A stretch of DNA of 50,767 bases, from NCBI GenBank assembly GCA_963524795.1, contig CAURIB010000001.1, positions 1-50,767 of the forward strand. Reading direction: 5' to 3'. This document shows positions 2,987-16,730 of this stretch, one piece after another. A model generated the notes under the pieces. The model was not told the DNA's origin and did no database searches. It saw only the letters and a list, made by a program, of their open reading frames with translations. The DNA is from an uncultured Streptococcus sp. Lineage in GTDB: Bacteria > Bacillota > Bacilli > Lactobacillales > Streptococcaceae. Made by a program: the position numbers and the translations under genes. Within the stretch, counting starts at the first letter, position 1; each line of letters starts with the position of its first letter.

Positions 2987-3088
2987 AAAAAAATAGCCAC
3001 ACTGCCCGGAGTCAAGCTCAGCAAACAGTGTGGTTAAGGCATCGTTAACTTACCTCACAACAGGTTTGAAGTAAATCAGCGAAACTAC
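2987..3088 (-). ncRNA. structured RNA upstream of trmL, probably the 23S-methyl motif / Spd-sr37-type RNA
   Basis: It has its own promoter. About 100 nt ending in the CCACACUGUUUG..CGGGCAGUGUGG hairpin plus U-tract. The position upstream of a SpoU methylase fits the Lactobacillales 23S-methyl motif (from recall). Confidence 0.65.
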
Positions 3089-10400: not shown

Positions 10401-10509
10401 TTATACTCAATGAAAATCAAAGAGCAAACTAGGAAGCGAGCCGCAGGCTGTACTTGAGTACGGCAAGGCGAAGCTGACGTGGTTTGAATTTGATTTTCGA
10501 AGAGTATTA
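10401..10509 (-). repeat. BOX element (boxA-boxC, no boxB)
   Basis: Reverse complement reads TAATACTCTTCGAAAATCAAATTCAAACCACGTCAGC..GCTTCCTAGTTTGCTCTTTGATTTTCATTGAGTATAA, with imperfect terminal inverted repeats. Confidence 0.9.
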
Positions 10510-13349: not shown

Positions 13350-14678
13350 ATGAAATCCTATATTACAGAATCAATCAAAGAGGATTTTCTTCAAAATTTG
13401 AAAACAATCATCTCTTATCCTTCTGTTCTCAATGAAGGTGAAAATGGCACTCCCTTTGGTCAAGCAATTCAAGATGTCCTGAAAAAAACGCTGGACTTAT
13501 GTCAAGAACTTGGTTTTAAAACCTACCTTGATCCTCAAGGATATTATGGGTATGCAGAAGTTGGTGAGGGGGATCTCCTTGCCATCCTCTGCCACCTAGA
13601 TGTCGTTCCTGCAGGCGATTTGACAGACTGGGAAACTCCTCCATTTGAAGCTAGTATCAGAGATGGGCGGGTTTATGGTCGGGGTTCTCAGGATGATAAA
13701 GGACCTTCTCTTGCAGCCCTTTACGCAGTCAAAAGCCTGCTTGACCAAGGAATTCAATTCAAAAAACGGGTTCGGTTCATATTTGGCACTGATGAAGAAA
13801 CACTTTGGCGTTGTATGGCAAGATATAATGCCATTGAAGAGCAAGCCAGCATGGGATTTGCTCCTGATTCATCGTTCCCATTAACCTATGCAGAAAAAGG
13901 ACTCCTTCAGGTCAAACTTCATGGACCTGGATCAGAACAACTCGCCTTAGATGTAGGTGGAGCTTTCAATGTCGTTCCTGATAAGGCAACCTATCAAGGA
14001 CCACTTATGGATCAGATCCAGGCAGGCCTAATAGCTGCTGGCTACGATTATCAACAAAATGATCAGAACCTTACTGTTCTAGGAGTATCTAAGCATGCCA
14101 AGGATGCTAGCCAAGGGATTAATGCAGTCATTCGATTAGCCACCGTGCTTGATTCCATTCAATCCCATCCTGCACTTACATTTCTTGCCAAAGAAGTTGG
14201 TCAAGATGGTCAAGGAAAAGAAATCTTTGGTGATATCAGCGACCAGCCTTCTGGACATTTATCCTTTAATGTGGCTGCCTTAACCATTACTCCCGAAAGT
14301 TCTGAAATTCGAATTGATATTCGAATCCCAGTCCTTGCAGACAAGGATGCCCTTGTTCATCAGCTGATAGAGTGCGCAAAAGCTTACCAACTTAGCTACC
14401 ATGAATTTGACTACCTGGCACCACTTTACGTTGTAAGAGATAGCACACTCGTCACTACTCTCATGCAGGTTTATGAAGAAAAAACTGGTGACAAGAGTCC
14501 CGCTCTATCATCTGGCGGTGCAACCTTTGCACGTACGATGCCAAACTGTGTCGCTTTTGGTGCTCTCTTCCCAGGAAGAGAGCAAACAGAACACCAAGCA
14601 AATGAATATGCTATCTTAGATGATCTCTATCATGCTATGGATATCTATGCTGAAGCTGTTTACCGATTAGCGACTTAA
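13350..14678 (+). CDS. arcT: M20 dipeptidase
   Basis: HLDVVP, GRGSQDDKGP, DEE and GGATFAR motifs. Start at ATG 13350. Confidence 0.88.
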   Translation: MKSYITESIKEDFLQNLKTIISYPSVLNEGENGTPFGQAIQDVLKKTLDLCQELGFKTYLDPQGYYGYAEVGEGDLLAILCHLDVVPAGDLTDWETPPFEASIRDGRVYGRGSQDDKGPSLAALYAVKSLLDQGIQFKKRVRFIFGTDEETLWRCMARYNAIEEQASMGFAPDSSFPLTYAEKGLLQVKLHGPGSEQLALDVGGAFNVVPDKATYQGPLMDQIQAGLIAAGYDYQQNDQNLTVLGVSKHAKDASQGINAVIRLATVLDSIQSHPALTFLAKEVGQDGQGKEIFGDISDQPSGHLSFNVAALTITPESSEIRIDIRIPVLADKDALVHQLIECAKAYQLSYHEFDYLAPLYVVRDSTLVTTLMQVYEEKTGDKSPALSSGGATFARTMPNCVAFGALFPGREQTEHQANEYAILDDLYHAMDIYAEAVYRLAT

Positions 14679-14684
14679 AAGACC

Positions 14685-14722
14685 TCCTAAACTCCGTCCC
14701 GATTTGGGACGGAGTTTTAGGA
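14685..14722 (+). terminator. arc operon terminator hairpin
   Basis: AAACTCCGTCCC-gattt-GGGACGGAGTTT. Confidence 0.8.
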
Positions 14723-14746: not shown

Positions 14747-14779
14747 AAAAGCCAAGGAAGGGATTTTCTTGGCTTTTTG
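14747..14779. terminator. bidirectional terminator, likely ending the prfC transcript
   Basis: AAAAGCCAAGGAA-ggga-TTTTCTTGGCTTTTT. Confidence 0.7.
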
Positions 14780-14824: not shown

Positions 14825-15180
14825 ACGACACACAGTTTGGCAAATCGATTCTATTTGGCAAACGAAGTTAGTAAGGCAGGTAGCTAGACCGCTTTCTAAC
14901 TATTACGACGAAAAAGTCCACGAATCAATACCATCCGTGGACTTTTCCTAGTGAAGCGTTTAAGTAAACCGATTTTTACACTACGACACGGAGTTTGGCA
15001 AATCGATTTTATTTGCCAAACGTAGTTAGTAAGGCAGTTAGCTAGTTCGCTTTCTAACTATTACGACACTGAGTTTTACAAATCGATTCCATTTGTAAAA
15101 CTCAGTTAGTGAGGCAGTTAGGCAAGTCTAATAGGACTTGCCGTAGCCTACTTAGATTGCTTTGCAATCAAGTAGGCTTA
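14825..15180 (-). repeat. tandem array of four ~80-nt hairpin modules plus two terminal hairpins
   Basis: ACGAC at 14825, 14905, 14983 and 15063. Each is followed by a 16-7-16 nt inverted repeat and then TAGTRARGC. Confidence 0.9.
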
Positions 15181-15185
15181 CTGAA

Positions 15186-16730
15186 TCACATTTTCTCTTC
15201 CAACTCAACATCTGGATACTTGTCCACAAACCAGCGGAGAGCAAAGTCGTTTTCAAAGAGGAAGACAGGTTGGTCAAAGCGGTCTTTTGCCAAGATGTTT
15301 CGACTAGATGACATGCGCTCATCTAAATCTTCAGGTTTAATCCAACGAACGGTCTTTTTACCCATTGGAGTCATGATAACTTCAGCATTGTACTCACCTT
15401 CCATGCGATGCTTAAACACTTCGAACTGGAGTTGTCCAACAGCACCTAGCATGTACTCACCTGTTTGGTAATTCTTATAAAGCTGGACAGCTCCTTCTTG
15501 TACCAACTGTTCCATTCCCTTGTGGAATGATTTTTGTTTCATAACGTTCTTAGGCGAAACCTTCATAAAAATCTCTGGAGTAAAGGTTGGCAGTGGTTCA
15601 AACTCAAACTTGTTTTTCCCAACAGTTAGCGTATCTCCAACCTGGTAGGTACCTGTATCATAAACCCCGATAATATCTCCAGCTACGGCATTGGTGACAT
15701 TCTCACGACTTTCTGCCATAAATTGAGTCACGTTAGATAACTTAGCTACCTTACCAGTACGAGGGAGATTGACACTCATCCCACGCTCAAATTCACCAGA
15801 TACGATACGGACAAAGGCAATACGGTCACGGTGACGAGGGTCCATATTGGCTTGGATTTTAAAGACAAAGCCTGAGAAGTCCTTATCATAAGGATCAACA
15901 ATTTCTCCGTCTGTTTTCTTGTGACCATGAGGTTCTGGAGCAAATTTGAGGAAGGTTTCAAGGAAGGTCTGCACACCAAAGTTAGTTAGGGCTGATCCAA
16001 AGAAGACTGGTGTCAAATCACCTGCAAGAATAGCTTCTTCTGAGAATTCATTTCCTGCTTCATTTAATAGTTCGATATCTTCTTTCACTTGCTCATAGAA
16101 AGGATTGCTTGCAAAAAGCTTATCTCCATCTTCTAGGCTAGCAAAGCGTTCATCCCCTTTATAGAGTTCCAAGCGTTGGTTATAGAGGTCATAGAGCCCC
16201 TCAAAGGCTTTCCCCATCCCGATTGGCCAGTTCATTGGATAACTGGCAATACCTAGAACTTCTTCCAATTCCTGCAAGAGATCTAGGGGCTCACGACCAT
16301 CACGGTCCAGCTTATTCATAAAGGTAAAGACAGGAATCCCGCGGTGTTTTACAACCTCAAACAATTTTTTAGTTTGGGCCTCGATACCCTTGGCAGAGTC
16401 CACGACCATGACCGCAGCATCCACTGCCATCAAGGTACGATAGGTATCCTCTGAGAAGTCCTCGTGCCCTGGTGTGTCTAGGATGTTTACGCGTTTGCCA
16501 TCATAGTCAAACTGCATCACAGATGAGGTTACCGAAATCCCACGTTGTTTCTCGATATCCATCCAGTCAGACTTAGCAAAAGTCCCTGTTTTCTTTCCTT
16601 TAACAGTACCAGCCTCACGAATCTCTCCCCCAAAGTAGAGCAACTGCTCAGTAATAGTTGTCTTCCCCGCGTCCGGGTGAGAGATGATGGCAAAGGTACG
16701 GCGTTTCTTAATTTCTTCTTGAATAGTCAT
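15186..16730 (-). CDS. prfC: peptide chain release factor 3
   Basis: [19 protein letters not shown] and QANMDP motifs. Confidence 0.97.

Follow-up and report, generated by a model that had tools for sequence, protein, structure and literature searches.

An array beside prfC in Streptococcus consists of copies of a ~125-nt structured repeat, possibly mobile as a folded single-stranded DNA circle

The window analysed here is the whole stretch of 50,767 nucleotides at the start of contig CAURIB010000001.1, from an uncultured Streptococcus sp. An array of structured repeats lies in it between a dipeptidase-like gene on the plus strand (stop at 14678), which we take to close an arginine deiminase cluster, and a gene on the minus strand which is presumably prfC, recognised as such from its translation and given the same name in the first-pass annotation. 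The other gene names used here (argS, pdhB-pdhC and so on) are likewise assumptions based on recognition of translations, except for those flanking proteins that were matched to Pfam. The main features, in window coordinates, are the following:

14825, 14905, 14983 and 15063, plus strand: starts of the four module matches (ACGAC, 39 nt, TAGTRARGC) found by pattern search
14825..14904, plus strand: unit 1, the most decayed copy; 12 of 16 pairs in hairpin A, of a variant shared with unit 3; hairpin C missing
14905..14982, plus strand: unit 2, with the other hairpin A variant; 14 of 16 pairs and two A.C oppositions
14983..15062, plus strand: unit 3; 13 of 16 pairs in hairpin A, with an internal loop of G.A, G.T and A.G
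15064..15188, plus strand: unit 4, the intact unit, with CGAC, hairpin A, helix P0 and a three-way junction with hairpins B and C
15068..15106, plus strand: hairpin A of unit 4; 16 of 16 pairs, loop (15084-15090) beginning with CGAT
15109..15118, plus strand: 5' arm of P0 of unit 4, with a conserved unpaired TA before (15107-15108) and after it (15119-15120)
15121..15142, plus strand: hairpin B of unit 4, followed by a conserved unpaired GT (15143-15144)
15145..15178, plus strand: hairpin C of unit 4, with a bulged A in its 5' arm
15180..15189, plus strand: 3' arm of P0 of unit 4; 15186-15188 are the reverse complement of the prfC stop codon TGA
15186..16730, minus strand: prfC (presumably), a translational GTPase of 514 amino acids whose stop codon lies inside unit 4

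Two strong hairpins (14689-14717 and 14747-14777) that follow the dipeptidase stop codon are probably terminators; their similarity in Rfam to SurC (E 0.058) and csRNA (E 2.6) is weak and non-significant. Elsewhere in the window, both BOX end motifs occur at 10418-10506 on the minus strand, between genes 2 and 3 of the presumed arginine deiminase cluster, and Rfam gives an FMN riboswitch and a 23S-methyl RNA motif at 2187-2404 and 2990-3085, both on the minus strand.

The first-pass annotation had described four hairpin modules of fixed geometry with periods of 80, 78 and 80 nt and linkers of 25–27 nt. The pattern search recovered all of this, the linkers measuring 27, 25 and 27 nt. In 61 genomes the same pattern gave at least 54 matches among those listed, against 3 for a reversed control pattern, and the array region folds with z-scores of −11.7 and −10.7 on the two strands relative to shuffled sequences. 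The self-complementarity that had been claimed for all arms is complete in unit 4 only: the numbers of Watson–Crick pairs out of 16 are 12, 14, 13 and 16 for units 1 to 4, and the plus-strand mismatches are A.A, A.G and G.G in unit 1 and G.A, G.T and A.G in unit 3. Units 1 and 3, already singled out as alike, do carry the same hairpin A variant. The real unit is, however, not a 53-nt hairpin module: it is a 125-nt element with a predicted fold of four helices, and the array is made of one intact and three truncated copies of this ~125-nt repeat. In unit 2, P0 and hairpin B survive only as a remnant and C is missing; unit 3 has a shortened P0, a hairpin B that is cut short and no C. Unit 4 scores 121 bits with the covariance model. 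The base that precedes it (15063, A) is identical to its last base (15188, A), a one-base overlap, and base 15189 is host sequence that does not belong to the unit. The 'two more hairpins' that had been placed after the prfC stop codon are parts of unit 4, closed by the fourth helix, P0. Since P0 holds the stop codon, the element starts inside it and not after it, as had been supposed. The hairpin at 15145-15178, proposed as a possible prfC terminator, is hairpin C of the same unit, and in relatives the prfC mRNA reads through the unit.

Comparison of relatives gave the order of the unit as CGAC, hairpin A, TA, P0, TA, hairpin B, GT, hairpin C, T and the second arm of P0; hairpin A has 15–16 bp and a 7-nt loop starting with CGAT, and hairpin C has a bulged A. 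That loop had been treated as a free segment but it starts with CGAT in 37 of 50 variants. In a model-free alignment of 31 hand-picked units, 38 of 44 pairs change on both sides, and all 44 do so among 108 model-aligned units, an alignment that is fitted to the structure; both figures count sequences and not events. Pairing reaches 89–92% in the units versus 33–45% in slid controls, and shuffled sequences are also far lower. All four helices of the unit covary, which bears out the earlier proposal that structure is conserved here rather than sequence.

The strand that folds was deduced from the non-canonical oppositions in 251 complete units, clustered at 80% identity into 50 variants and parsed by a program that credits only Watson–Crick pairs. 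On the ACGAC strand, G.T outnumbers A.C (45 versus 14) and G.A outnumbers T.C (101 versus 8). This excess identifies the ACGAC strand as the folded one, that is, the plus strand here, antisense to prfC. It does not tell DNA from RNA, as G.T and tandem G.A pairs do not discriminate between the two. The mismatches of unit 2 are two A.C oppositions, as the first-pass annotation had described them, but they run contrary to the family-wide bias and are exceptions, probably due to decay. The junction bases, which the parser does not demand, are kept as TA in 46, GT in 46 and T in 49 of the 50 variants. Of the double mismatches in 178 distinct A hairpins, tandem GA/GA is the most frequent, with 61 cases, and the commonest loops are CATA in hairpin B (14 of 50 variants) and TTTA in hairpin C (16 of 50). 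Hybrid hairpins, with arms from two different variants, show that copies recombine with each other in the loop. Kissing loops formed through a palindromic ATCGAT were considered and ruled out, many variants reading AACGAT.

The covariance-model search of streptococci that had been suggested showed the unit to be spread genus-wide. Model R1 matched 141 of 150 other Streptococcus genomes, and model R2 matched 109 of 113 Streptococcus genomes, 13 of 18 from one sister genus and none of 19 across six other genera of the family. Outside the family, one weak partial match was found among 131 genomes of the order and no unit in 143 genomes of the class or in 150 of the phylum; 22–23 candidates were scored per genome there, so that remote relatives can be missed. 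Among the matches listed are records labelled S. mitis, S. oralis, S. pneumoniae, S. sanguinis, S. gordonii, S. parasanguinis and S. suis. Numbers of matches in genomes G114, G131 and G130 are 113, 34 and 28, and no copy was found in the viral contigs, phages and plasmids searched. In the window's own genome, which is 83% complete, units were found at five sites: those at prfC and argS, a pair of copies at pdhB-pdhC, and two others, the genes being named from our reading of their translations. Of the two options first proposed, that of a dispersed repeat family is the one supported by this distribution and by the signs of mobility described below.

Some further occurrences were recorded. A metagenome bin labelled Granulicatella has one copy nearly identical to the streptococcal pnp site, and it was not counted as a separate host. 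The stop codon of the ribonucleotide reductase large subunit is occupied in both Streptococcus and the sister genus (L189, L360, L412 and L413), a common site that could stem from a very old insertion or from repeated targeting. Many of the sister-genus copies are located, as judged by eye, directly behind terminator-like hairpins of a gene on the opposite strand (L405, L410, L411, L414-L416, L419, L421 and L423). The metK leader holds a copy, which is duplicated in some strains (L004, L011, L028 and L251); the idea that this copy sits inside a SAM-III riboswitch was dropped, with neither an Rfam match nor a paper to support it.

Insertion sites were compared by grouping 330 terminal units according to the gene family on their right, which gave 86 sites: 45 inside carrier repeats (20 BOX-like, 16 of a second family and 9 of a third) and 41 free. 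Since many of the high-copy cases lie inside carrier repeats, copy number overstates the unit's own mobility. Units lie in either direction and next to dozens of genes that have no relation to each other, and near-identical copies occur at unrelated genes in G130, G131 and G007. Of the 41 free sites, 30 have a neighbouring gene that runs towards the unit. At 13 sites a gene on the opposite strand ends inside the unit, and in 9 of these its stop codon coincides with the unit's last three bases. All parsed terminal units at prfC (66/66) and argS (68/68) end at the stop codon, supplying TAA, TGA or TAG depending on the variant, and the prfC stop position is occupied by several unrelated variants. 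The prfC comparison ran to 100 rows, among which are duplicates, five of them from the window itself; one row lacks a unit and one has hairpin B deleted. These loci were selected for carrying the element and hence cannot show how often prfC lacks it.

Filled and empty sites define the ends. In G131 loci of the second repeat family, 8 ends are filled and 13 are empty; the 27 rows of BOX-like left ends in G114 divide into 10 that are filled and 17 that are empty. Each of these two sets gives a one-base overlap; in the third such comparison, of the BOX-like right end, the boundary fits only within 1–2 bases. The base preceding CGAC is the same as the last base in 47 of 63 variants (23.8 when shuffled) and in 20 of 30 non-tandem variants (9.6 when shuffled). 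The overlap is limited to one base, offsets −1, −2, −3 and −5 being at chance and −4 slightly raised, and each of the two bases before it is a T in most variants (37 and 39 of 50). Taken together, the data show that the unit has inserted into formerly empty sites, with a one-base overlap after TT, that it overlaps stop codons and that it forms tandem arrays in which the intact copy is the one nearest the gene.

Three kinds of carrier were seen. The second repeat family is a long imperfect hairpin of ~100-115 nt with variable stems and conserved A-rich and T-rich arms; it often adjoins the unit, and in G130, G131 and G007 carries it at its 3' end. It was seen beside the copies at pdhB-pdhC (C4, in the window's genome), at C28 of the same genome and at L285, L290 and L298. 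The third structured family has units at one or both ends (L253, L257, L265 and L535-L542), and a motif resembling part of it interrupts IS200-type tnpA copies with a premature stop in the window's genome (L023 and L024). Some BOX-like elements of G114 have a unit near each end, in opposite orientations (L324, L334, L337, L338, L340 and L342), and in some of them further repeats are nested inside hairpin C (L549, L553 and L554).

The two ends of the unit are also connected by covariation. Position 47, the first base of P0, can pair with the first base of the unit in 60 of 63 variants (53 C-G and 7 T-A), against 48.1 in shuffled sets and with 0 of 3000 shuffles reaching this value; within Streptococcus it does so in 55 of 57 variants, a number reached in 4 of 3000 shuffles. 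With the host base that faces it in the chromosome it pairs in only 21 of 63 variants, which is at chance level (18.3 when shuffled). The switch to T-A represents about three independent events (five sister-genus variants and two Streptococcus singletons). Such a pair can form only where the last base adjoins the first, in an excised circle or across a tandem join. Folded as circles, 33 of 50 variants with DNA parameters and 43 of 50 with RNA parameters form a closed branched rod that contains the pair, and the ACGAC strand is more stable as a circle in 40 and 42 of 50 variants, respectively.

The explanation that we prefer, giving it about as much credence as doubt, is that the array element is non-coding and non-autonomous and moves as a folded single-stranded DNA circle by means of an enzyme acting in trans. 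The unit would be excised, or copied, as a single-stranded DNA circle and recognised by its shape. Joining of the last base to the first would close P0 onto hairpin A and yield a fully closed branched rod, the mobile form being presumably such a circle or a head-to-tail concatemer. The enzyme may read the conserved unpaired bases (CGAC, the CGAT loop, TA, TA, GT, T and the bulged A). A nuclease provided in trans, of which the HUH single-strand type is our best guess by analogy, would then join the unit 3' of TT-N targets. A unit landing at the reverse complement of a stop codon would restore a stop, and because many variants end with TTA, TCA or CTA, insertion at stop codons would be tolerated. 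Every insertion would regenerate the target, so that re-insertion, together with recombination between copies, could build arrays in which older copies decay and the newest, intact copy lies next to the gene. Several points weigh against a DNA circle: no mobilising enzyme was found in the genomes searched, a tandem junction gives the same pair between position 47 and the first base, and sense-oriented copies exist, whereas the RNA-seq data discussed below covered the prfC locus.

The search for a mobilising enzyme was made from several sides. The REP-associated transposase model NF047646 gave no match above cut-off in 201 streptococcal genomes (the control was above cut-off in 1 of 14), and the IS91-type Y2 transposase gave none in 151 genomes, its control likewise being unmatched anywhere. 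No module lies beside 24 IS200-type genes, no HUH/IS200 gene was found next to copies, and the covariance model had no match at any of 31 loci that hold IS200, IS110, reverse transcriptase or rolling-circle Rep genes; in selected genomes, IS110 is present in 1 of 5 and a reverse transcriptase in 4 of 5. Among flanking proteins, of which 150 of 283 clusters were scanned, there were only housekeeping genes and three IS5-type fragments, and no integrase. The pMV158-type Rep is encoded in 67 of 151 streptococcal genomes and does not track the element: it is present in 5 of 9 element-negative genomes and was not found in the window's genome (83% complete). RAYT, IS200, IS110, reverse transcriptase and pMV158-type Rep were each considered as mobilisers and none is linked to the unit. 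The active strand is on the lagging-strand template at 46 of 85 sites in G114 and at 14 of 33 in five other genomes, i.e. there is no bias, in a count that assumes the terminus opposite dnaA and in which many G114 copies ride on carriers.

Twelve Rep loci (L563-L574) each have, before the Rep gene, a nick-site hairpin whose loop is conserved and whose stem varies. The 5' junction of the unit often resembles the nonamer found before pMV158-type Rep (at 63 of 429 unit junctions the difference is one mismatch at most, as it is at 12 of 12 Rep loci); in the pMV158-type origin, unlike in the unit, the nonamer is a hairpin loop. The nick position of such origins would fall two bases inside the unit, in disagreement with the empty-site boundary, and a rolling-circle nick site was rejected as the integration point for this two-base discrepancy.

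Transcription was followed in four RNA-seq runs of relatives mapped on L236, the prfC locus of a relative; three of the runs covered the locus (X12 gave 6 reads). Eleven further runs, known at contig level with shares of 0.05–0.10, do not enter the figures below. The mapped reads are mostly 90–95% identical and come from relatives rather than from the window's strain; some derive from argS-type copies, with loose ends, and standard libraries of this kind lose small circular RNA. Depth over the unit on the prfC strand is 891–1066 in X18, 1284–1372 in X21 and 56–260 in X15. In X18 and X21 it is similar to that of the coding region, and depth is lower over the downstream gene. Reads joining the unit to that gene number 340 on one strand versus 1 on the other and 546 versus 4. 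On the ACGAC strand, depth is 16–20, 3–5 and 0 (X18, X21 and X15), that is, 0–2% of the depth over the unit and no higher than over the gene, and none of the five joints listed runs from the end of the unit back to its start. In these relatives the array is part of a prfC read-through transcript, and the strand with the conserved fold is not expressed at the prfC site. An incidental effect on the prfC mRNA is therefore possible.

The mobile, folded form might instead be RNA, a small circular one made from sense-oriented copies and reverse-transcribed in trans, which we consider somewhat unlikely. RNA normally contains G.U wobbles and tandem G.A pairs, the circle pair is commoner with RNA parameters (43/50), and copies between genes of the same strand, which would be sense copies, make up 10 of the 41 free sites and 14 of the 16 second-family sites. 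Of 5 genomes checked, 4 have reverse transcriptase genes, although no unit lies near the loci examined. The position of many sister-genus copies behind terminator-like hairpins, as seen by eye, recalls class C group II introns, which sit behind such hairpins; Rfam, on the other hand, gives no ribozyme or intron match. CATA and TTTA, the commonest loops of B and C, are not among the usual stable RNA tetraloops, and at prfC both RNA of the ACGAC strand and the back-joint are absent in the three studies that covered the locus.

A second alternative, which we regard as unlikely, is that the unit is not, or is no longer, mobile by itself but spreads as a passenger of carriers and by homologous recombination, its pairing being kept by template-switch correction of the palindromes. 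Most copies in high-copy genomes are indeed inside carrier repeats, the core sites are old (one ribonucleotide-reductase site is common to two genera), and the hybrid hairpins made of two variants' arms do show recombination in the loop. Palindrome correction, however, would be strand-neutral and would erase mismatches, yet G.A and G.T are kept on one strand together with the unpaired junction bases. Moreover, the unit has inserted into three or more carrier families and at 41 free sites, and the one-base overlap and the covariation of the first base require a head-to-tail join.

That the host maintains the unit as a structure of the prfC mRNA on the transcribed strand (a 3' UTR scaffold, processing site or terminator, in line with the prfC-strand structured RNA first proposed) is quite improbable, even though the unit is in read-through RNA at a depth like that of the coding region and above that of the downstream gene, the reverse complement folds too, an intact copy is kept at the prfC and argS stop codons across many genomes and the neighbouring gene is directed into the unit at 30 of 41 free sites, because the non-canonical pairs favour the other strand (45:14 and 101:8), unrelated variants substitute for one another at the prfC stop and the unit lies in either direction, beside dozens of unrelated genes and within selfish repeats. 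A secondary, co-opted effect on the prfC mRNA would not contradict the preferred DNA-circle explanation.

No Rfam family matched the array at gathering score, the best E-value matches being at chance level, nor were there matches on the units in 20 variant loci. CRISPR arrays differ in that here the variable parts are paired stems common to genomes and sites, and the neighbours of the array, by recognition, are the arginine deiminase cluster and prfC and not cas genes. REP/BIME elements are intergenic palindromes that form mosaic arrays by housekeeping genes; their hairpins are bulged, and single-stranded DNA has been proposed as the substrate (PMC6006769). The unit resembles these TnpAREP/RAYT-associated repeats in its palindromes, its arrays beside housekeeping genes and its bulged hairpin. 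In contrast to REP sequences of 21–65 nt, it is 125 nt long and branched, with stems that vary freely between copies, and has no conserved GTAG/GTGG foot, its 5' foot being CGAC; the B–C junction is GT followed by a variable paired base and reads GTAG only in some variants. IS200/IS605 elements are described in the same text as having a single-stranded circular intermediate and a lagging-strand template bias (PMC6006769). Strand-specific hairpins, a T-rich target 5' of the element and the absence of a real target duplication are features that they share with the unit, which is nevertheless unlike the ends of streptococcal IS200-type elements; in the counts given above, with their assumed terminus and carrier-borne copies, it showed no lagging-strand bias. 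The unit works like REP/BIME or IS200/IS605-derived elements and differs from both in the features that define them. Integron attC sites also combine a conserved structure with variable stems, extrahelical bases and strand asymmetry (PMC8632094), and in all of these respects the unit is similar; it differs from attC and CALIN arrays in being branched and in having contiguous copies without cassette genes, and there was no integrase among the flanking proteins scanned.

Closer to hand are BOX, RUP, SPRITE and the S. suis BOX-type repeats, which belong to the same genus, are similar in size, form modular arrays and nest in repeats. According to Croucher 2011 (PMC3049150), BOX elements often supply the stop codon of a gene (36 cases), BOX, RUP and SPRITE are almost absent outside pneumococcus, S. 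mitis and S. suis, and boxE and boxF of S. suis are 115 and 133 nt long. The unit, in contrast, is present in 141 of 150 genomes and diverges in sequence while its geometry stays fixed. Unlike MITEs such as BOX and RUP, it has no terminal inverted repeats, its ends being CGAC and an arm of an internally paired helix, and there is no target duplication of 2 bases or more, empty sites agreeing on the one-base overlap. In G114 it is inserted into BOX-like elements. SPRITE, by its description a single 18-bp duplex with a U-rich tract and 28% GC, is unlike the unit, and in two S. suis-labelled genomes with unit matches the loci scanned showed no BOX terminus. The part of PMC2267715 that was available gives only BOX, RUP and the 45-nt genic Stre-1 as pneumococcal repeats. 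A Breaker-lab study of mobile and repeat candidates that includes Streptococcus motifs (250 MRSC and 55 HRC motifs) has no such motif in the portion of its main text covered (PMC11109978), and no description of the unit was found in the accessible parts of PMC3733652, PMC6006769, PMC6212727, PMC2828477, PMC8632094 and PMC4448216 or in the wider literature searched. The unit is apparently undescribed in Rfam and in the papers covered, but it may already be listed, for instance as S. suis boxE or boxF or among the Breaker-lab motifs. Its shape is kept while its sequence changes, which may be why the similarity-based cataloguing that revealed BOX, RUP and SPRITE missed the family.

This family is present in 94% of the streptococcal genomes tested. 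The unit supplies the stop codons of core genes (prfC, argS and others, by our naming) and lies in transcripts, and it consequently affects the annotation of 3' ends and of predicted small RNAs. How small palindromic repeats without an enzyme spread is an open question outside the REP/RAYT case, and there is a testable chance that the unit, a small non-autonomous palindromic repeat, represents a new kind of mobility: its exact ends, target rule and predicted circle junction make the element directly testable. More speculatively, and only as a tentative proposal, it could be a gene-free element of viroid size (125 nt) that travels as a closed branched single-stranded circle recognised by shape, served by an enzyme outside the known transposase pairings, inserting with a one-base overlap, colonising the stop codons of essential genes and building polar arrays by re-insertion, and it may belong to a wider class with three-way junctions. 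Shorter forms exist as well: a 93-nt derivative that keeps A, P0 and B and lacks hairpin C is present as near-identical copies in G130 and G131, and four other genomes have a second derivative of this type (loci L535-L545, L201 and L210).
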